Shown one piece after another: positions 5,578 to 43,448 of a stretch of 64,000 nt of DNA. Origin of the DNA: a virus. Lineage: Duplodnaviria; Heunggongvirae; Uroviricota; Caudoviricetes. Each line of letters begins with the position of its first letter. Position 1 is the first letter of the stretch. The notes beneath the pieces were generated by a model. It searched no databases, was not told where the DNA came from, and saw nothing but the letters and a program-made list of their open reading frames with translations. The position numbers were made by a program, and so were the translations under genes. The DNA is taken from positions 27,767 through 91,766 of IMG/VR virus record IMGVR_UViG_3300013383_000021. One strand, 5' to 3'.

Positions 5578-6551
5578 TGGCTAAACAGAGATTAGGGGCA
5601 GCCGAACCAGCGAGAGTTAAAGGTCAGTTCAAGTGTGTTGGCTGCGGCACCGTTTACTCTACGCAGGTTCGTAACTTTAAAACTGTCCAGAGTCCGTTAT
5701 ACAAAGGGAATAACAATTATCTGTGTTGGTGCAATAGATGCGTTGACGCTCTGTACATCAAGTATAGGGATAGCGGATTATCTGAAGCGGATGCCGCTAG
5801 GAAGGTGTGCTCTAAGTTTGATATCTATTGGGACAGGGACGCCTGGGATAAGGTTTCTACGGCAAAGAAAAGTGAAAGTTCAACGATAATCAGAACTTAT
5901 TTCGACCGGATGAATCTTAATCATCACACAAAAAAAACGTACGACAATACGCTTGTTGAAGAAGCACGCCAGCAGATGTTGCTAGAGAAGCAATCCTCTA
6001 TTGGTATGAACGCTGAAGAAGATCCCGAAGTCTCCCCGGAACTAGAAGAGTTCTGGGGTAAGGGTAGAGAGCCGTGGTGCTACGCCGAGCTTCAGCATAC
6101 ATATGACAGATTGACTAATGGGTATACTGTTGATACTCCCGCTAAGGCTCTCCTGGTCAAACAGGCTTGCCTGTCTGTGTTTGAGATTGATGAGCTTCAG
6201 AAGAACGGTAAGCCTTTCGAAAAGCAGCAAGCCTCTCTGGTTAATACGCTTGGTTCATTGAATCTGAAGCCTAGCCAGATTAAAGAAGACGAGCGGAACT
6301 CTGGATTAGATGATATGCCATTTGGTGTAGCGATCCAGAAGTGGGAGCAGACACGTCCCATCCCGGAGCCGCAATCGGACTGGGTTGACATTGATAATAT
6401 CAGAAAGTACAACATGACTTGGTTCCTAGGTCCGCTATGTAATATGGTTGGGGTGGATAACAAGTACAATGAGATGTACGAAGAAGCAATGAGTGAGTAC
6501 AGGGTTGATCGTCCGGATTACTCAGAAGATGAGGATGTGGTCGATGAATGA
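5577..6551 (+). CDS. putative terminase small subunit (position-based), N-terminal Cys4 zinc ribbon
   Basis: CVGCG...CWCNRC. Sits immediately upstream of the large terminase and overlaps it (ATGA). Confidence 0.35.
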   Translation: MAKQRLGAAEPARVKGQFKCVGCGTVYSTQVRNFKTVQSPLYKGNNNYLCWCNRCVDALYIKYRDSGLSEADAARKVCSKFDIYWDRDAWDKVSTAKKSESSTIIRTYFDRMNLNHHTKKTYDNTLVEEARQQMLLEKQSSIGMNAEEDPEVSPELEEFWGKGREPWCYAELQHTYDRLTNGYTVDTPAKALLVKQACLSVFEIDELQKNGKPFEKQQASLVNTLGSLNLKPSQIKEDERNSGLDDMPFGVAIQKWEQTRPIPEPQSDWVDIDNIRKYNMTWFLGPLCNMVGVDNKYNEMYEEAMSEYRVDRPDYSEDEDVVDE

Positions 6552-8323
6552 CAGAGTACACAAAGACACGACAGATAAGACTTGACCCTACTAAGTCAAG
6601 AGAGGAGCGCGTCTTCGAAGGTGTTGCCGCCTGGGCTGCTTTCTATCGAGCAAACCCACATAGATTTGCAAAAGATTATCTAGGCATCAGCCTAAAGCCG
6701 TTTCAACAGATACTTATGGTTGAGATGGATCAGTGCAACTATACTGCTTATATTGCAGCGAGAGGACAAGGCAAGAGCTTCCTTATCTCTCTTTACTGCT
6801 GTGTGCGGTGTATCTTGTACCCCGGTACAAAAGTCTGTGTCGCTGCTGGGCGTAGGTCTCAGAGTATCAATATTCTGGAGTATATTCAGAATCAGTTCAT
6901 GGTAAACTCGCCAGGACTGAAGCGCGAGATTAAGACTATTACGACAGCCCCTAACAACCCTATTTGTATCTTTGAAAACGGGTCAACGATTAAGGTTGTA
7001 ACTGCTAGTGATACAGCTCGTGGTAACAGAGCGAACATTATTATCTGTGATGAGTTTAGAATGATCCCTGAGTCAGCCATCAATGAGGTACTAAGGAGAT
7101 TTCTTTCTGACGAACGTCATCCCCCGTATATTGATAACCCAAAGTATGCTCATATTAAAGAAAGAAACAAAGAGATCTATTTAACCTCCGCCTGGTTTAA
7201 AGATCATTGGTCGTACAAGAAGGTCGAAGATTTTTATGCCAAGATGGTGCAGGCCGGTCCGTACTTTGTGTGTGGTCTCCCTTATCAACTCTCTATTAAA
7301 GAGGGACTGTATAGTGCAGAGCAGGCAATCGAAGAAATGTCCGAAGCAACATTTAATGAGTCCCAGTGGGCGAGAGAAATGGAGTGTTGTTGGACTGGCG
7401 ACGTCGAAGGTTCTTTCTTTAACTACGAAGCGATTAACCGTACACGGCGACTGAAGTTCCCAATGTTGCCGTCCTACGCATTGCCTGGCAAGCTGGCTGC
7501 CAAGGATATGGGAATCGTGAATAAGCAGGTAGGCGAGATAAGAATCATCTCTGTTGACGTTGCTTTAATGAGTTCTACTAAAAAATCAGAGAACGACGCG
7601 ACAGCAATCTTTGTGAATCGAATGACGCCAAATGCACACGGTCGCTACTATAGTAATATTGTTTATACGGAATCTCACGAAGGTGAGACGACACAAAGGC
7701 AGGCATTGCGTATACGACGGTTGTACGAGGAATACTCAGCAGACTATATCGTGATTGACGGCAAAGGTGTCGGCGCTGGTGTTGTTGACCTGCTGTTAGA
7801 TGACATCTACAATCCTGATACAGGAGAGACGTATGGCGCTCTCTCCTGTTATAACAACCCTGACCTTGCTGCTCGGTGTACCGACATGGACGCACCAAAA
7901 GCTCTGTGGGTAATAAATAATCAAACTGCACGCTTCAATTCGGAGTGTGCTTTTTCTTTGAGAGAAGGGTTCCGCTCTGGAAAGATTCGTTTGCTTGCAA
8001 ATGAATATGACGCGGAAGATTATCTTTCTGAGGTACGTGGTTGGGGGTCTATCAACCCGGTCGAGAAGACCGTAGTGCGGCTTCCATATGTGGACACTAC
8101 GTACCTAGTTGACGAAATTATTAACTTGAAATACGAAGACACTCAATCAGGTGTAAAGGTATACGAAAAATCTGGTTATCGAAAAGACCGGTATTCATCC
8201 CTTTCTTATAACTACTGGGTTGCGTGTCAGTTAGAAGACAAGTCGCGCATGAAGAGAAAGTCTAATATAGACATCTCTGAATTGCTGCGATGCCAAAGAG
8301 CACCCAGACTTAGAAGGAGGTGA
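6548..8323 (+). CDS. terminase large subunit
   Basis: Walker A-like AARGQGKSF and Walker B IIICDEF. C-terminal nuclease-like region. 591 aa. Confidence 0.85.
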   Translation: MTEYTKTRQIRLDPTKSREERVFEGVAAWAAFYRANPHRFAKDYLGISLKPFQQILMVEMDQCNYTAYIAARGQGKSFLISLYCCVRCILYPGTKVCVAAGRRSQSINILEYIQNQFMVNSPGLKREIKTITTAPNNPICIFENGSTIKVVTASDTARGNRANIIICDEFRMIPESAINEVLRRFLSDERHPPYIDNPKYAHIKERNKEIYLTSAWFKDHWSYKKVEDFYAKMVQAGPYFVCGLPYQLSIKEGLYSAEQAIEEMSEATFNESQWAREMECCWTGDVEGSFFNYEAINRTRRLKFPMLPSYALPGKLAAKDMGIVNKQVGEIRIISVDVALMSSTKKSENDATAIFVNRMTPNAHGRYYSNIVYTESHEGETTQRQALRIRRLYEEYSADYIVIDGKGVGAGVVDLLLDDIYNPDTGETYGALSCYNNPDLAARCTDMDAPKALWVINNQTARFNSECAFSLREGFRSGKIRLLANEYDAEDYLSEVRGWGSINPVEKTVVRLPYVDTTYLVDEIINLKYEDTQSGVKVYEKSGYRKDRYSSLSYNYWVACQLEDKSRMKRKSNIDISELLRCQRAPRLRRR

Positions 8324-35640: not shown

Positions 35641-35705
35641 CGAAGGTCGGCTCTTGATTAGATGATAACTGACGAGTGCTGCCTTGGTATAAAAGGAGTG
35701 ATATA

Positions 35706-37019
35706 ATGCCGCTGAAAGGTATTGATGTATCTGTACATCAGGGAGTAATCGACTGGAAAAAGGTTGCGAAGGATGGCGTAAAATTCGCCATCCTTCGTGC
35801 TGGTTACGGGCGAGAGATCTCTCAGAAAGATAAATATTTTGAAACAAATTACACCGGGGCTAAGGCCGCTGGCATTAAGGTCGGAGCCTATTGGTACAGC
35901 TATGCTAACAGCGTGGCTCGTGGTGAGCAGGAGGCTAAGACCTTCCTGAAAGCAATCGAGGGGAAGAAGTTTGACCTCCCTCTCTTCTTCGATCAAGAAT
36001 ATGAAACGGCCATTTTGAAACTGTCTAACGCTACCAGAACAGACATCGTTTTGAAGTTTGTTCAGACGGTAAAGGCCGCTGGTTATGAGTGCGGGCTGTA
36101 TAGTTCTACCGACTTCTTGAAGAACAAGCTGGTTACTTCTAGAGTGTCTGGTCTAAAAATTTGGCTGGCCGAGTATGGCTCTAAGCTGCATTACACCGGT
36201 AAGGTTTGGGCTTGGCAGTACAGTAGCAAAGGCCGTGTGTCTGGTATCAGCGGCAATGTTGATATGAACCACGGGTACTTTAAGATTGATACGCCTGCAA
36301 AGACTCCGGCTAAAAATAGCGACAACCTACTGATGAAAGATGATACCGGCGACAAGGTCAAACTATTGCAGCATCGGCTAAATATTCTTGGCAACCAGCT
36401 AGTTGAGGACGGCATCTGGGGTATCAAGACCGAACAGGCCGTTCGTAATTTTCAGTATAATTACGGACTGGTCGTAGACGGTATTGTTGGCCCAAAGACA
36501 CAGGAGAAACTTATTTCGGAGGCGATAGTTGCGTCTGCAAAGACAATCAGCAACTATATGTTGAAGAATAAATGGCATTACAAGGGCAATGGTTACACGG
36601 CGAAGACTACGTTCGCCGCGACTAAGAAGCTGTCTAAGCCTGGTTCAAGCTGCGCACACTTTGTCTCCTGGGTGCTGCAGGATGTCGGTCTGCTGCAGGC
36701 TGGAAAGGTTCTCAGCCATACCAAGGCTGGCTATGGCGTCGGCGAAAAATCTATCGTCAACGCGGACAAGCTGATTGACTGTAAGGTCATATACCCGAAC
36801 AAGAGCATCGACTCTTATAAGGGTGAGCTGAAGCCCGGCGACGTAATTGTTCACGACTCCAGTATCGCTATTTACCTGCTAAAGGATAAGAAGCCCGCCG
36901 TGCTGACGGGTCGAAACGGATCATGTATCAATAGCAAAGGTCAGTATGTAAAGATGCTCGTTATGTCTGGTTATGAGTGGCGACACAATATCCTGGCTAT
37001 CGTAAGAGCAAAAGTATAA
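35706..37019 (+). CDS. modular endolysin (N-terminal GH25 muramidase, peptidoglycan-binding repeat, C-terminal Cys/His domain)
   Basis: GIDVSVHQGVIDWKKVAKDGVKFAILRAGYG (GH25). PGBD-like DGIWGIKTEQAVRNFQ and DGIVGPKTQEKL. C-terminal ...SSCAHFVSW...VIVHD. Confidence 0.85.
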   Translation: MPLKGIDVSVHQGVIDWKKVAKDGVKFAILRAGYGREISQKDKYFETNYTGAKAAGIKVGAYWYSYANSVARGEQEAKTFLKAIEGKKFDLPLFFDQEYETAILKLSNATRTDIVLKFVQTVKAAGYECGLYSSTDFLKNKLVTSRVSGLKIWLAEYGSKLHYTGKVWAWQYSSKGRVSGISGNVDMNHGYFKIDTPAKTPAKNSDNLLMKDDTGDKVKLLQHRLNILGNQLVEDGIWGIKTEQAVRNFQYNYGLVVDGIVGPKTQEKLISEAIVASAKTISNYMLKNKWHYKGNGYTAKTTFAATKKLSKPGSSCAHFVSWVLQDVGLLQAGKVLSHTKAGYGVGEKSIVNADKLIDCKVIYPNKSIDSYKGELKPGDVIVHDSSIAIYLLKDKKPAVLTGRNGSCINSKGQYVKMLVMSGYEWRHNILAIVRAKV

Positions 37020-37069: not shown

Positions 37070-37219
37070 TGCAAGGCTCGCTCCTTGTGCAAGGTCTAAC
37101 TCCTTGCGTGCAGGTATGCTTTAGCGTACGACTGCTGGATTAAAAGAAAATAGCAAGCGTGTATTTTGACAAAGATGCACCAAGCGGAAAAAGAGGACCT
37201 CCGGAGGTCCTCTTTTTTT
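37070..37219 (+). ncRNA. candidate small RNA (promoter to bidirectional terminator, no ORF)
   Basis: An approx. 150-nt transcribed interval. It contains two similar hairpins (caagg-N6-ccttg and gcaagg-N7-ccttgc) and ends at the terminator at 37187. Confidence 0.3.
37186..37219. terminator. bidirectional rho-independent terminator
   Basis: aaaaagaggacctcc-gg-aggtcctcttttttt, with A- and T-runs on both sides. Separates the + structural/lysis block from the - block. Confidence 0.85.
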
Positions 37220-37472
37220 ACCCATTTTCTCTTTGCTTGGCGCGGCACATTCTAATGCGTAAGGCGTTTGTGGTAGGGAATTTAGCGTTATAAACACCTT
37301 TTACATACGGGGCGTTTCGATGCACGGCGCTTTCTGTTACTCTTTGCATCTCTGCTATTCTCTCAATAGGGACTCCTGCACGGGCAAGCGCTGCTTCAGG
37401 AGTGTTAAGCGCACCCACCGTCACTAAGAGTTTCTTTGCTTTATATGTTGAACATTTAAGTCCATCGGCCAC
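37218..37472 (-). CDS. hypothetical protein
   Basis: 84-aa ORF. Last gene of the - strand cluster before the bidirectional terminator. Confidence 0.4.
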   Translation of the reverse strand: MADGLKCSTYKAKKLLVTVGALNTPEAALARAGVPIERIAEMQRVTESAVHRNAPYVKGVYNAKFPTTNALRIRMCRAKQRENG

Positions 37473-37561
37473 ACTACGGATCGACCCACACTCTTTGTAG
37501 ACTTAAGCAGCTATCATCGCCTCGATTGGCATGTCGTTATTGTGGTAGCGTTGCGCCATAG

Positions 37562-38095
37562 CTACTCATACCTCCAAACCATTCTTGATTTCCTGCCGGA
37601 GTTTTTGAAATACACTCTGTTTACTTCTTTTGCTACCCTGTCTACCCATGCGGGGGAGCCATCTGGCTCCTCAGAATATGGAGAGCCGCGATCCAAATAT
37701 TCTTCCATCGACCGTCTGAACCCGGCAAGCCATTTTTTATTTTGACGCAAGAAGTGAGGAATACAGTGCCAGGCGGCATTATGGGCTAAGTCCATTTTTG
37801 TAATAACAACTTCGATAGTCTTAGCCCTTTCATTATAACTTCCCGGAATGTACCTACACGTGTTCCATTCTTTTTTGTATTCCGAGTACGGCATACGCCT
37901 CACGTTAACCTCGTCGCTCCGCCCTTTCTTTCGTAGCTCTTTCTTGTACCAACATAGGTAACACGTTGTTTCTTCTTTTTGTATCTTTGTTTTCCACCAG
38001 TCTCTTTGTCCCGTGGATGAGCACACTTTTTCACGACGGACTAGGCAGCCGCACATGACACATTCTTTATCAACGCGAGCATTTACCATCTTCAA
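37562..38095 (-). CDS. hypothetical Cys-rich (putative zinc-binding) protein
   Basis: 177 aa. CVMCGC...C...CYLC pattern. Confidence 0.45.
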   Translation of the reverse strand: MKMVNARVDKECVMCGCLVRREKVCSSTGQRDWWKTKIQKEETTCYLCWYKKELRKKGRSDEVNVRRMPYSEYKKEWNTCRYIPGSYNERAKTIEVVITKMDLAHNAAWHCIPHFLRQNKKWLAGFRRSMEEYLDRGSPYSEEPDGSPAWVDRVAKEVNRVYFKNSGRKSRMVWRYE

Positions 38096-38522
38096 CCTGG
38101 CCCTTCACGTTCACAATTCTGGGAACTAATTCTTCCTTCCCTACCGGAATCGGAGGAAGCCATCTTAACTCCAGTCTTTTATCGCCGCGCTTTTCTGACC
38201 CTACCCAATAGTGGTGCCAATGGGCGCGACGAACGTAGGACTTTGCGCTGGCTCGTAGTTTTTGGCCAACGGATTTACCCACAAAAATAACTCCGTTGCT
38301 AGACTTACTGGTGTCTGTGTTAGCGGACAACAAATATAACACAAATTGAAGCATCTCTTGTATTACATTGAACTGCATATCTTCTTTTGTTATTGACTTC
38401 GGAAGATCTAAAGGCTCATATTTCTTAACGGTGGTGGTAGGCCCTCTTTCAGGAGTCAGTCTAAATGAGGCGGATAAATACCCAACACTGTTAGAAGCAC
38501 CTTTTGTTTTAATAAGTAACAA
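38070..38522 (-). CDS. hypothetical protein
   Basis: 150 aa. Overlaps the downstream gene by 26 nt (operon). Confidence 0.45.
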   Translation of the reverse strand: MLLIKTKGASNSVGYLSASFRLTPERGPTTTVKKYEPLDLPKSITKEDMQFNVIQEMLQFVLYLLSANTDTSKSSNGVIFVGKSVGQKLRASAKSYVRRAHWHHYWVGSEKRGDKRLELRWLPPIPVGKEELVPRIVNVKGQVEDGKCSR

Positions 38523-38682
38523 GCGTATACATACGTCTTCTTTTTTCAGATTTGTAGTCCGTCCAACAGAAGAACCCAGGGCTTTCTATGATAGGAACAG
38601 CAGCCTCAACGAAGAAACACCTGTGTGGAAGTTTAGATAACAGTTCTTCTGGCAGGGTAACTTTGTCCTTATACCTGTCTAC

Positions 38683-38994
38683 TTAAGCGATCAATTCGCT
38701 AGCAAGAGTGTAGTCAAAGCGGTACACAATGCGCTCTTTATCCCACGCCCAAGCCGCGGCAAGCTCAGAACATAGGCTCCTGGCGATCTTATCGCCACGT
38801 TGTTCTTTTAATACAGAGTAAGCTACATAAGTCGGAACTGTGCATTGGCTAGGCCATGTATTAGTCTTTGTTGCTTCTTCGGCAGCTCGTGACATGGCAC
38901 CCCATATGCCACGAGTCTCTGGGTTGTATCGCCAATAGCTGACCACTGTTGTGGGAAGTAATTTCGATACGGATTTACTTTTTCGTTTCTTCAT
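38683..38994 (-). CDS. hypothetical protein with basic N-terminus
   Basis: 103 aa (MKKRKSKS...). Preceded by a poly-A16 tract on its strand. Confidence 0.45.
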   Translation of the reverse strand: MKKRKSKSVSKLLPTTVVSYWRYNPETRGIWGAMSRAAEEATKTNTWPSQCTVPTYVAYSVLKEQRGDKIARSLCSELAAAWAWDKERIVYRFDYTLASELIA

Positions 38995-39015
38995 TCGTAA
39001 CGCCCCGTTAAATCC

Positions 39016-39031
39016 TTTTTTTTTTTTTTTT
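39016..39031. repeat. homopolymeric tract T16 (A16 on - strand)
   Basis: Sixteen consecutive T, approx. 20 nt upstream of the start of the 38994 gene. Confidence 0.9.
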
Positions 39032-39039
39032 CGCCCCTG

Positions 39040-39525
39040 TCAGTACTCAACTAAATCCGTGACTTCGCAGTTAAGCACTCCAGCCAGTTTCCCTAACTGC
39101 TCAATACTCTTAGGAGACCTCCTTCGGGCCTCCCAGTCCGCGATCGTGCGTACCGGGACACCGGATGCCTTAGCCAGCTCTGCACGAGACAAACCGTGCT
39201 CCTTACGCTTCCTCTCTATCTTAGTCCCAATCCCTCGCACAGTGCGGTAATACGCGAGCTGCCAGGTGCCTTGCTGCTCTAAGTTCAGATGTGTCCGAAA
39301 ATCCTTTTTCATATGCTCCGGTGTGAGCGAATCAACTCTTTCTGCGATCAAATCAGTGATGTCGTCATCACTTTTATGAAGCTGGTGCAATTTTTGCACA
39401 GCGAAAGTGAAACCCCGAAGCGGCCAACACATTGCGTTATACCGATCCGTTTCGTTCCATCCTACTCTCTGTTCGATGAGAGCATAGGCTTCCGCAAGTC
39501 CCTGAATCTGTTCTGTTGTAAGCAT
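39040..39525 (-). CDS. transcriptional regulator with C-terminal XRE-family HTH
   Basis: GLSRAELAKASGVPVRTIADWEARRRSPKSIEQLGKLAGVLNCEVTDL at the C-terminus. The N-terminal approx. 100 aa are unknown. Confidence 0.65.
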   Translation of the reverse strand: MLTTEQIQGLAEAYALIEQRVGWNETDRYNAMCWPLRGFTFAVQKLHQLHKSDDDITDLIAERVDSLTPEHMKKDFRTHLNLEQQGTWQLAYYRTVRGIGTKIERKRKEHGLSRAELAKASGVPVRTIADWEARRRSPKSIEQLGKLAGVLNCEVTDLVEY

Positions 39526-39548: not shown

Positions 39549-39619
39549 AATGCGTCTATTTACAGGCAAATTATAACGCGATTGCGTCTATTTGTCAACG
39601 GTTTTAGACGCATTTTTTG
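39549..39619. promoter_or_regulatory. three copies of a TGCGTCTATTT operator-like repeat (two direct, one inverted)
   Basis: aatgcgtctatttacagg (39549-39566). attgcgtctatttgtcaacgg (39581-39601). Inverted copy tagacgcatttttt (39606-39619). All lie upstream of the XRE gene start. Confidence 0.45.
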
Positions 39620-39641: not shown

Positions 39642-39667
39642 AAAAGCCCGGCCAGTTGGCCGGGCTA
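39642..39667 (-). terminator. rho-independent terminator (minus-strand orientation)
   Basis: aaagcccggcc-agtt-ggccgggct. The U-run is present only on the - strand side. Confidence 0.6.
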
Positions 39668-39930: not shown

Positions 39931-39953
39931 CCTTACACCTTACGCACCTTATC

Positions 39954-40003
39954 TGGTGGAGATAAGCGGGATCGAACCGCTGACCTCTTGAATGCCATTC
40001 AAG
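39954..40003 (-). tRNA. 3' half of tRNA-Ala(GGC), anticodon stem to CCA, forming the attP core
   Basis: Reverse complement reads cttga-atggcat-tcaag aggtc agcgg-ttcgatc-ccgct tatctcc a cca. Anticodon GGC. T-loop TTCGATC. U70 present for the G3:U70 Ala identity pair. No D-arm or 5' acceptor strand upstream. Confidence 0.6.
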
Positions 40004-40030
40004 AAAAACCTTATATTTTTTATCATCCTA

Positions 40031-41173: not shown

Positions 41174-41920
41174 TTAAGATTTGATTGCCTGGTACTTCCC
41201 TTGCATTTCTTCATACTTGCCGCAACTCATATTGCCTTCCGGACATTTGCCCTCAGCCACACAGCTAGGCCCAGCCTTTGCAAACAAGTTCGGTGCTACG
41301 GGGTAAACAAGCTCCAGCATCTTATCTGCCAGTTCTCTGACTTCCCACTGAGCGCGATTACAACATCGGAGTTCGAACAAATGCAACAGAGATCTCGCGT
41401 TCATGGTCACAATCATTCTTGTCGTCGCCGCATTCGGTAGAACGAATCTTGCATCTTCATTTGCAACCTTGTCAGCCGCAGACTTCTTCATACCGGCTTC
41501 GACATACTTTTTAGACAGCCTGTCCTGGAGGACTTCGTACACTCTGTTTTCCATTGTCATCGTTTCAGAGAATAGAACGTTCAGTTCCTCGTCGTCTTCT
41601 ACAGCTGGCGGGGTAACGAAATCAAACCCATTCATGCTGACGTACCGCTGACTCTGCACTGAGTAAGAGGCGATACGGTGACGAGTCAGCTGCGCAAGCA
41701 GAGCGCGGGATACTCCCTCGATACCAAACATGAAAGACACGTGCTCGATAGGAGACTGGTGCCCCATGTTTGAAAGATGCTGAATGAACTTAGATACAGA
41801 CTCATCCGTCAGGCCGTTCATCAGGGTCTCAATGCTGTCCGCGCTTGAGTAACACAGCTTGGCTGCAGCTGCGACAACCTTTTCCGGTTCCGGCGTATGT
41901 GTAATTAGAGTAACCTTCAT
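41174..41920 (-). CDS. thyX: flavin-dependent thymidylate synthase ThyX
   Basis: ThyX signature RHRIASYSVQS (RHRx7S). 248 aa. Confidence 0.85.
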   Translation of the reverse strand: MKVTLITHTPEPEKVVAAAAKLCYSSADSIETLMNGLTDESVSKFIQHLSNMGHQSPIEHVSFMFGIEGVSRALLAQLTRHRIASYSVQSQRYVSMNGFDFVTPPAVEDDEELNVLFSETMTMENRVYEVLQDRLSKKYVEAGMKKSAADKVANEDARFVLPNAATTRMIVTMNARSLLHLFELRCCNRAQWEVRELADKMLELVYPVAPNLFAKAGPSCVAEGKCPEGNMSCGKYEEMQGKYQAIKS

Positions 41921-41929
41921 TTACAAACC

Positions 41930-42832
41930 TCACTTATCCATTCCAACCATGATGTTTCCGTCCTTTGATGTGACGACGCTGGGCATTTTGCCGTCCCATT
42001 TTTCAATGTACTGGCTCTTAATAACGTTATCAGTCAAAGATTTTTCCAACATCTTGTTTGCTTTAGACTCAGCTTCAGCATTTTTGATCTTTACTTCTGC
42101 TTCAGCTTCTGCTTTAGCGATATTTTTCTTATTGAGAATCTCTTGTTCCTCTGCTTCAAGCTGTGCTTTCTGCTTTTTAGCGATAGCTTTGCTATAGCTA
42201 TCCTCGAAGTCAGCACCGTTGATGACAATCCTGTTAACCACAACGACATCCTTGCTGTATTTTTCGTCCAGCGCCTCTTGCAGACGCTTCATAGTAAGCG
42301 GTTCAATCTTTGTTCTAGACGTTGCATCAGTGTCCTGCAGTTCCTTACTTGCAGACTTGACCGCAGAAGATACAATTCCAGCAGAAACCAGCATATCTTT
42401 ATAGTCTGAGACATTAGCGTAGACCCAAAAGGACTTGTCCGGGTTAATTTGATAGGTCACTGTCACATCTTCGTAGTACACAGCAGTTCTATTTGTAGTC
42501 TCAGACCAAATCTTGCCCTCAAAAGTGATATCTTGCTGCTTGTTATTTACCACTTCAATCTTCTGGATGAACGGAACCTTCCAATTGACCCCATTCTGAA
42601 CGGTCTCTTCTGAAATCTGGCCGAACGTACTACGTACACCGGTATACCCGGTGGGAACAATGGTGAGCGCTTGGGTAAACAATGCCAAAATAAAGCCGAC
42701 CACAACAAGGGGAACGCAAAGTTTTGCAAATTTTGCTGTGACTTCGCGATCTCTATCAACATAGCTAACAAAGAACAGCACTCCGGCTCCAGTTAACACA
42801 AAAACTGCAGCAACAACACTCAAAAATACCAT
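41930..42832 (-). CDS. SPFH/band-7 (HflK/C-, prohibitin-like) membrane protein
   Basis: N-terminal TMD. SPFH core (VPTGYTGVRSTFGQI...). C-terminal Ala/Glu/Lys coiled coil. Confidence 0.7.
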   Translation of the reverse strand: MVFLSVVAAVFVLTGAGVLFFVSYVDRDREVTAKFAKLCVPLVVVGFILALFTQALTIVPTGYTGVRSTFGQISEETVQNGVNWKVPFIQKIEVVNNKQQDITFEGKIWSETTNRTAVYYEDVTVTYQINPDKSFWVYANVSDYKDMLVSAGIVSSAVKSASKELQDTDATSRTKIEPLTMKRLQEALDEKYSKDVVVVNRIVINGADFEDSYSKAIAKKQKAQLEAEEQEILNKKNIAKAEAEAEVKIKNAEAESKANKMLEKSLTDNVIKSQYIEKWDGKMPSVVTSKDGNIMVGMDK

Positions 42833-42842
42833 ATAGCCCTCC

Positions 42843-43448
42843 TTATTTATCTACTTCATCTAGATGACTTGCCATCATATCTGCCATATGCAGCATAAAT
42901 CCGAGCGGATACTTCTCCCACGCCTTATTAAGAGACCTATCCCCGCCTTTCACGGCGTTATCAAACTCACCCATATGCCATCTAATAGCAATCGCCTCTT
43001 CCGGCTTCAGCTTCATGTAGTTCTGGATAATAAAGTTGGTCTTCTCGCCGTGACCAATCGGGAATCTTTCGTTAATCACGTAGGTTGGAACCGTTTCCCA
43101 TCTGCCAGTGTCCGGATTCTTTACATTCCGTGTGCTAGACTGGTAAAAATGAATCTTGCACAGGTCGTGCAGGAGCGCCGAGATAGCAACCATCTCGTTA
43201 ACCTCTTCGTCTGGTGTTCCAGCGGGGAAGCAACGCTCCTTGTCTGCCTGATTATCAAGCAACTGAACTAGTCTATCGTACACGTTCAGGCTATGGATAC
43301 ATAGACCTCCATCGCAGGATAGGTGAAACCGAGTGCTGGCCGGTGCCGTGAAGAAATCAGACCGCTCCAGGTACGACAGGAGCCGATCGCTCCCGTCGCG
43401 GTGAATGTTATCTTTAAACACTTCAATAAATCTTTCTTTGTAGTCCAT
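42843..43448 (-). CDS. HD-domain phosphohydrolase
   Basis: H...HD (LLHDLCK) and downstream D (HMADMMASHLD). Confidence 0.6.
   Translation of the reverse strand: MDYKERFIEVFKDNIHRDGSDRLLSYLERSDFFTAPASTRFHLSCDGGLCIHSLNVYDRLVQLLDNQADKERCFPAGTPDEEVNEMVAISALLHDLCKIHFYQSSTRNVKNPDTGRWETVPTYVINERFPIGHGEKTNFIIQNYMKLKPEEAIAIRWHMGEFDNAVKGGDRSLNKAWEKYPLGFMLHMADMMASHLDEVDK

Follow-up and report, generated by a model that had tools for sequence, protein, structure and literature searches.

To our knowledge, no bacterial protein other than AcrVA2, an anti-CRISPR of a Moraxella bovoculi prophage, has so far been found to recognise a nascent polypeptide and remove its mRNA. Residues W79, D89, H286, R288 and H291 of AcrVA2 were shown by Marino et al. 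to matter for activity, and about 1800 AcrVA2 orthologues are carried on mobile elements, the majority in settings that lack Cas12a (bioRxiv 10.1101/2022.11.29.518452). The plasmid fertility inhibitor FinQ is a homologue of AcrVA2 (bioRxiv 10.1101/2022.11.29.518452) and has been listed among the fertility-inhibition factors (PMC5696584). FinQ lowers the mRNA of a rival element, which means that the family is used in mobile-element conflicts beyond CRISPR. We analysed a stretch of 64,000 nucleotides, referred to here as the window, from the Caudoviricetes virus record IMGVR_UViG_3300013383_000021 in IMG/VR. A minus-strand gene cluster of the window was found to contain a decayed AcrVA2/FinQ-family gene within an operon resembling those of anti-CRISPR and anti-CRISPR-associated genes (acr-aca), and not a new kind of system. 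Beyond what is known, at the level of the clade, the AcrVA2-like gene is accompanied by those of a two-domain XRE regulator and two uncharacterised partner families. At this locus, a gut-type Firmicutes phage carries a gene of the family within a conserved four-gene XRE-controlled operon, a finding that bears both on mRNA removal by AcrVA2 and on the targets of its ~1800 mobile-element homologues. The window copy is a documented recent multi-hit inactivation, a recent pseudogene; the copies worth working with are the intact ones in the related sequences L001, L002 and L023.

The initial annotation had described the cluster as a regulator plus four unknown genes, none of them recognisable. Its five mechanical open reading frames (ORFs) were all present on the minus strand in the ORF list, between 39525 bp and 37218 bp. 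These are the XRE ORF of 161 amino acids (aa; 39525–39040), a 103-aa ORF (38994–38683), a 150-aa ORF (38522–38070) with a TTG start and no ribosome-binding site, the Zn-ribbon ORF (38095–37562; 177 aa from a TTG, 175 aa from the ATG at 38089) and an 84-aa ORF (37472–37218). Comparison with relatives reduced these five to four genes. The 103-aa and 150-aa ORFs are parts of a single gene, and the 84-aa ORF is not a separate gene but the tail of a 113-aa gene that has an in-frame TAA at 37505–37503.

The 103-aa and 150-aa ORFs both matched PHROG 6160 (322 positions), at positions 21–101 and 282–318 respectively. Three-frame translation revealed that the 103-aa frame continues past its TAA for ~57 codons and that the 150-aa frame resumes after an A6 run. 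The fused sequence aligned end to end with intact homologues of 302–315 aa, the best of which (P0001, 309 aa) had 82% identity and 100% coverage. A tblastn search with P0001 placed its residues 14–153 and 152–309 in adjacent frames of the window. As the two ORFs share a PHROG, align end to end when fused and are joined by this adjacent-frame match, they were taken to be one gene (38070–38994, minus strand), a pseudogene of the AcrVA2/FinQ family with a repaired product of about 307–309 aa. The same search found no second AcrVA2-like copy in the 64-kb window. A nonsense mutation and a frameshift had made two 'unknown' genes of one known gene, which is a lesson for annotation.

Scans of the single ORFs against Pfam, PHROG, NCBIfam and PADLOC returned only the helix-turn-helix (HTH) and the two partial phrog_6160 matches; the local Pfam copy used for these scans was without the PF26125 model. 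The AcrVA2-like gene was identified from its homologues and from profile and structure searches. PF26125, which is named AcrVA2-like, was present on 75/75 homologues of the fused sequence, and the 150-aa fragment of the window is itself tagged PF26125 in the near-identical sequences L019–L022. A profile of the close clade matched AcrVA2 (PDB 7CI1; E=1.8e-5) at the C-terminal RRxHWHxYWxG...RW.P motif, and a profile of the 56-sequence family matched residues 7–319 of 7CI1 (E=2e-40). An AlphaFold2 (AF2) model was made of the intact homologue P0001, not of the broken window sequence, and had a predicted local distance difference test (pLDDT) score of 82. In a Foldseek search of the PDB with this model, the AcrVA2 entries 7CI1/7CI2 were the sole significant matches (E=3e-11, probability 1.0, template modelling score ~0.5). 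On sequence and modelled fold, the central gene is assigned to the AcrVA2/FinQ family, PF26125. Residues W84, D94, R256 and H259 of the repaired window protein align to W79, D89, R288 and H291 of AcrVA2 and are invariant in the clade, and the 150-aa C-terminal fragment keeps the conserved RRAHWHHYW motif.

The gene thus resembles that of AcrVA2 in its PF26125 assignment, its full-length profile homology, its fold, the retained equivalents of W79, D89, R288 and H291, and its place as accessory cargo on a temperate phage. It differs from AcrVA2 in that identity is about 17%, the equivalent of H286 is Tyr and the window gene is a pseudogene. Furthermore, AcrVA2 acts alone and lies beside AcrVA1, whereas the gene described here shares its operon with three others, for an XRE regulator and two conserved partners. 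With FinQ of the IncI / F-like plasmids (e.g. R621a), the likeness is one of family and of a product that lowers a rival element's mRNA; FinQ differs in being plasmid-borne in Enterobacteria, and its kinship with AcrVA2 rests on the study that reported it (bioRxiv 10.1101/2022.11.29.518452).

Read from intact relatives, the unit is a four-gene translationally coupled operon that encodes, in order, the XRE regulator, an AcrVA2-like protein of ~305 aa, a protein of ~175 aa and a protein of ~110 aa. The cassette lies between the integrase/attP and the endolysin in L001, L002, L003/L004 and L007, with stop/start overlaps; in L005/L006 it is also beside the endolysin, on contigs that end before any integrase. 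L001 and L002 encode XRE, AcrVA2-like, 177-aa and 113/132-aa proteins, and L007 has the same first three genes followed by a 29-codon remnant of the 113-aa gene. The order in L003 and L004 is XRE, AcrVA2-like, a 110-aa protein (a 55% homologue of the 113-aa protein) and a 125-aa protein, and in L005 and L006 it is a 159-aa protein (a 30–33% homologue of the 177-aa protein), a 286-aa protein, AcrVA2-like and a 79-aa HTH protein. L023 has all four families with the order changed: XRE (50%), 162 aa (31%), AcrVA2-like (41%) and 101 aa (44%). In the window, and likewise in each of the six architectures seen among relatives, an HTH gene is adjacent and in the same orientation. The partner genes do not accompany the AcrVA2-like genes of L008–L018, and the gene for P0088, a 21%-identical relative of the Zn-ribbon protein, has no AcrVA2-like neighbour, so the association of all four genes is particular to the clade.

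The third gene (37562–38089, minus strand) is intact and encodes a Zn-ribbon protein of 175 aa with a CxxC...CxxC pattern. Its family (54 representative relatives, none annotated) consists of a conserved N-terminal module of ~100 aa (CxxC...CxxC, then M.Y..YK...SYD..TKTI.V) and a variable C-terminal part. Homologues with 30–33% identity adjoin the AcrVA2-like genes in L005 and L023. The protein had no Pfam, PHROG, PDB or PADLOC match, and the PDB/Pfam profiles gave weak zinc-finger noise. An AF2 model of it was discarded (pLDDT 51), as were the long repetitive 'homologues' P0086 and P0087, which look like low-complexity artefacts. The fourth gene (37218–37559, minus strand) is a pseudogene of the 113-aa family; its ATG, at 37559 bp, follows the preceding stop by 2 nt and has GGAGG as its ribosome-binding site. 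Intact homologues of the 113-aa protein have up to 93–94% identity, and homologues with 44–55% identity follow or accompany the AcrVA2-like genes in L003 and L023. The family had no detectable relatives outside the clade and no PDB relative. L007 (2070–2144) retains no more of the 113-aa gene than its initial ~29 codons. This deletion and the nonsense mutation in the window mean that the gene has been lost independently at least twice.

The ratio of nonsynonymous to synonymous substitution rates (dN/dS) was 0.03–0.2 among relatives for all four genes (~0.05 for the XRE gene and 0.04–0.12 for the Zn-ribbon gene), which bears out the initial annotation in treating them as real genes and not chance ORFs. 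There was no rise for the broken genes of the window. Such strong purifying selection, with no excess in the broken genes, indicates that they were working until recently.

The XRE gene is intact. Its 161-aa product has an N-terminal domain (residues 1–~95) and, as had been noticed initially, a C-terminal HTH, with Pfam HTH_3 over residues 103–158 (E=1.4e-12); the N-terminal ~100 aa, also singled out at that stage as unrecognised, matched nothing in profile scans. Beyond the HTH itself, the protein gave only generic XRE/HTH_3 matches in these scans, and in PADLOC no more than weak, generic hits to HTH models such as RmrA and CapH (E of at least 1.6e-6). PADLOC gave nothing for P0001, the Zn-ribbon protein or the 113-aa protein. 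Upstream of the gene is a sigma-70 promoter (39570–39598, minus strand) of the form TTGACA-17 nt-TATAAT, with 12/12 consensus matches, which is conserved in L001–L004, L007, L019–L021 and L023. Three TAGACGCA boxes overlap or flank this promoter (39551–39612, minus strand). A direct box, AAATAGACGCA, lies within the promoter spacer (39591–39583), a second direct box, AAATAGACGCA, lies just after the -10 (39559–39551) and an inverted box, TGCGTCTAA, lies upstream of the -35 (39612–39604). Both direct boxes are kept in L023, whose XRE is only 50% identical, and L005, which encodes a different HTH protein, has a different palindrome at the same promoter place. Boxes that are kept at 50% XRE identity and swapped together with the HTH protein are the pattern expected of an autoregulated operon. 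The three boxes are accordingly candidates for XRE binding, and the XRE protein is predicted, by analogy with Aca proteins, to be an autorepressor.

The operon shares with acr-aca operons an HTH gene in the operon of the effector, a strong promoter overlapped by repeated boxes and accessory genes that vary between relatives. The XRE protein is also two-domain, as is AcrIIA1, in which the HTH is fused to an effector domain. It is unlike acr-aca operons in that the regulator is first and not last, the HTH is C-terminal and repression is a prediction.

The AcrVA2-like gene of the window has an in-frame TAA (38683–38685, minus strand) at codon 104, derived from CAA (Gln). In a DNA alignment this codon is CAA in L001 and CAG in L002, and 9/10 aligned homologues have Gln at this position. 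About 50 codons after the TAA, an A6 run (38540–38545, minus strand) carries a +1 A insertion that causes a frameshift; the site is CTGAAAAAAGAAGAC in the window and CTG-AGAAGGAAGAC in L001, and the frame switches at 38546–38542. The 113-aa gene has an in-frame TAA (37503–37505, minus strand) at codon 19, which is also derived from CAA (Gln). Exact-pattern scans of IMG/VR for both lesion sites gave no match. The start region of the AcrVA2-like gene is altered as well. A 45-nt spacer (38995–39039, minus strand) between the XRE stop and the AcrVA2-like start stands where relatives have an overlap or a 1–4-nt gap, and the ancestral start codon is changed from ATG to AGG at 39038–39036 in the window; other copies keep ATG. 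The spacer coincides with a mosaic boundary, with the XRE of the window closest to L003 and its AcrVA2-like gene closest to L001. With the TAA at codon 104, the +1 frameshift and the rearranged start region, the AcrVA2-like gene is dead and no effector can be produced from it. The XRE and Zn-ribbon genes are the only intact genes and may still be expressed.

The identical broken allele was found in ERZ27300205, ERZ808259, ERZ26859192 (762x coverage) and SRR29834479, plus JGI/IMG data. These are at least four metagenome assemblies, produced independently and by different assemblers. The exact 103-, 150-, 175- and 84-aa products have likewise been recorded from several independent assemblies. 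L019 and L020 had 99.96% identity to the window over 8 kb, and L021 (762x) and L022 had the same three lesions with only three other single nucleotide polymorphisms in the operon. The rest of the window is densely filled with intact ORFs, some as long as 2482, 1310, 1045 and 941 aa, and the flanking genes match the gene lengths of relatives. Lesions that are shared by independent assemblies within intact surroundings exclude both sequencing error and general decay. The lesions are real, recent and local.

Some differences were observed among these near-identical copies. The poly-A tract of the spacer (39031–39016) is hypervariable, being A16 in the window and A16, A15, A9 and A9 in L019–L022. 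In the A9 or A15 copies, the upstream ATG opens a short upstream ORF that ends in ATGA on the main start, and at the tract length of L019 it fuses in frame, giving a 118-aa gene call. An alignment of L021 (a 106-kb contig of ERZ26859192) with the window between 36000 bp and 37000 bp showed 112 differing sites in the 3′ half of the endolysin gene, against the 3 SNPs of the adjacent operon. This pattern indicates a recent mosaic exchange at the boundary of lysis genes and cargo.

The two premature stops have a shared context, as each is a CAA to TAA change within GCT[C>T]AAGT(A/C)(G/T)AC. The sequence ACTTAAGC (GCTTAAGT on the minus strand) has only two copies in the window, at 37501–37508 and 38681–38688, and these are the two premature stops. 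Both sites derive from GCTCAAGT in relatives. Among the possible nonsense sites of the two repaired genes, this is the sole pair that shares its 8-mer (1/6946 pairs, or 1/150 with transitions only), in a test that was post hoc. Each stop mutation also creates CTTAAG, a hexamer that is otherwise avoided (3 observed vs ~19 expected). Deaminase mutagenesis was rejected as the source, the lineage-specific substitutions having no excess of C>T or of the TC context relative to L001, L002 and L007; the substitution spectrum of the window lineage is ordinary. Systematic error or editing at a methylation motif was also rejected, with CTCAAG observed 33 times (24 expected) and CTTAAG rare and not enriched. 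The shared context may reflect coincidence, a hot spot for mutation at this sequence or selection for loss.

We consider it likely that the locus is a self-regulated, acr-aca-like conflict operon of a temperate phage, situated beside attP and recently inactivated here. In an intact copy, the sigma-70 promoter and the strong ribosome-binding site would fire once the DNA is in the cell. The XRE protein would bind the AAATAGACGCA boxes that overlap the promoter and reduce transcription, in the way that acr promoters are controlled by Aca proteins. The AcrVA2-like protein, if it behaves as AcrVA2 does, would recognise the polypeptide of one target and lower the mRNA and protein of that target. With moderate confidence, the target may be a host immune effector; a function of a rival mobile element, as with FinQ, is a distinctly less probable target. 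The initial annotation had proposed a superinfection-exclusion or defence cassette, and the broad idea of a conflict cassette holds. The defence part is not supported, AcrVA2 being counter-defence and PADLOC having found no defence protein beyond the generic HTH; superinfection exclusion is possible through FinQ, an excluder of a rival plasmid. As carried in the window, with the AcrVA2-like and fourth genes inactivated, the cassette is probably not fully functional.

Several observations weigh against an acr-aca-like operon directed at host immunity. The regulator-first order differs from that of most described acr-aca operons, and searches of GTDB species genomes gave only distant relatives (at most 27% identity). 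The shared context of the two nonsense mutations is not predicted by neutral decay. As AcrVA2 acts alone in a heterologous host, the co-conserved Zn-ribbon and 113-aa partners are left unexplained. The position equivalent to AcrVA2 H286 (~38240) is Tyr in the window, in P0001–P0004 and in P0010, which read SYVRRAHWHHYW; the sister clade P0005–P0009 has His here, as do at least 90% of the members of the family at large. The H286A variant of AcrVA2 loses activity (bioRxiv 10.1101/2022.11.29.518452). Most family members are found where Cas12a is absent (bioRxiv 10.1101/2022.11.29.518452), so that the target here is probably not Cas12a. FinQ sets a precedent for exclusion and not for counter-defence.

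An exclusion function of this kind, in which an operon at the prophage end protects the lysogen and the prophage against competitors by down-regulating a function of an incoming phage or plasmid, is possible though unlikely. It would suit the moron-like position and the operon's own promoter and terminators, but immediate-early counter-defence loci typically combine a strong promoter with autorepression, and PADLOC detected no defence-system protein. The direction of the conflict is not readable from the sequence. FinQ, as a family member, inhibits F-plasmid transfer and lowers tra mRNA, and members occur mostly without Cas12a (bioRxiv 10.1101/2022.11.29.518452), but the sole member studied mechanistically is an anti-CRISPR.

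More doubtful still is the proposal that the four families form one multi-component machine in Firmicutes phages, with the triple hit arising from selection for loss or from a sequence-specific mutational process. If this were true, the partners would supply what AcrVA2 lacks, e.g. a link to the ribosome or to RNA decay. The choice of target could then be made through the variable C-terminal part of the Zn-ribbon protein, and the triple hit (two CAA to TAA changes in one 8-mer and a frameshift) could represent, for example, escape from a host immune sensor.

There is only a slight chance that the operon is a toxin-antitoxin (TA) or abortive-infection system, in which the XRE protein is a DNA-binding antitoxin, its N-terminal domain counteracting an AcrVA2-like toxin that would shut off an essential gene of the host. 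An autoregulated operon with the regulator first resembles HipBA- or XRE-led type II TA loci, the XRE protein has an extra domain of unassigned role, and multiple lesions in the putative effector would fit selection for loss through inactivation of a toxin. However, the operon has four genes rather than two, the HTH protein of L005 is without the N-terminal domain and the AcrVA2-like gene is still kept there, and no TA family was matched except by generic HTH hits far below cut-off. AcrVA2 is, in addition, non-toxic and highly specific in P. aeruginosa (bioRxiv 10.1101/2022.11.29.518452).

It is very improbable that the broken genes are alive, through recoding (TAA read as Gln and a +1 shift on AAA-A) or with the fragments working as separate proteins. 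Both TAA codons stand for Gln codons, the A6 run is followed by AGA AGA so that a +1 slip of Lys-tRNA is conceivable, the C-terminal fragment retains RRAHWHHYW and the allele persists across several samples and genomic backgrounds. Recoding would nevertheless need two independent low-efficiency events, and the 150-aa ORF has the TTG start noted above with no ribosome-binding site. The intact relatives need no recoding, and the start region is damaged too. Reassignment of the stop codon was rejected, as the window encodes no suppressor tRNA, TAA terminates many of its ordinary genes and the frameshift would remain. Although one lesion is a change in homopolymer length, sequencing or assembly error in an intact operon can be dismissed, since all three lesions recur in four or more independent assemblies from different assemblers, one of them at 762x, and no other gene is disrupted in the 64 kb.

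The position of the cluster between the endolysin and the integration module, given in the initial annotation, was confirmed. A GH25 endolysin gene with a PG_binding_1 domain (35676–37019, plus strand) closes the plus-strand structural arm, and a tyrosine integrase gene (41116–40031, minus strand) is the neighbour on the other side of the operon. A tRNA-Ala(GGC)-like segment (39957–40027, minus strand) directly follows the integrase stop; its 3′ two-thirds are well formed and its 5′ part is degenerate. The segment scored 31.5 bits with the Rfam tRNA model (gathering score 29), ARAGORN found no intact tRNA there, and 39951–39998 matched tRNA-Ala / phage att ends in a phage collection. It is probably the attP core. 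GC skew in the 64-kb window switches sign at ~37 kb, which makes the operon the end of the leftward arm, at the convergence point. Judging from its orientation, integration would leave the operon at an end of the prophage, with the rebuilt tRNA gene immediately upstream. The acrIIA loci of Listeria are placed similarly, with the lysin gene on one side and the end of the prophage on the other.

Terminators on both sides had also been proposed and were found as two hairpins with U-tracts. The upstream terminator (39645–39666, minus strand) has a 9-bp GC-rich stem followed by a U-tract (-20.4 kcal/mol, z=-4.5) and shields the operon from transcription from the integrase side. At the other end, a bidirectional terminator (37188–37217), composed of an A-run, a 13-bp stem and a T-run, is shared with the convergent endolysin gene; it had -21.2 kcal/mol on the minus strand and -20.2 kcal/mol on the plus strand and is kept in L001. 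As first supposed, the cluster is accessory cargo of a temperate phage. It lies at the att-proximal end and has a promoter and terminators of its own, and scans with Pfam, PHROG, NCBIfam and PADLOC found no virion or core-phage homology for any of its genes.

The terminase gene (6548–8323, plus strand) encodes a protein with 43% identity to YonF of Bacillus phage SPbeta and 48% identity to that of a human-faecal phage contig, and the phage is classed by sequence as temperate and SPbeta-like. Contigs with this phage measure 93–109 kb; the 64-kb window therefore covers no more than a portion of the genome. Immediately upstream of the integrase (41174–43448, minus strand) are thyX (PF02511), a gene for a 300-aa Band_7/SPFH protein and a gene for a 201-aa protein; this trio is conserved in L002 and L019–L021. 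Many 6-bp palindromes are missing or scarce across the window (1–64000). ATTAAT was observed 0 times against 28 expected, and AGGCCT, GAGCTC, GTGCAC, CCCGGG, CGGCCG, GCCGGC, GCGCGC and GGCGCC are absent, a depletion that looks like restriction-site avoidance. Between 33611 bp and 34534 bp, the plus strand encodes a 307-aa protein resembling a tail or head fibre, with three tandem repeats of ~35 aa (…DITxLGIPAQDTVYxHPxHxAHxxGxYKITVDxxGHVSxA…). Its homologue in L001 gave a faint Phage_head_fibr match.

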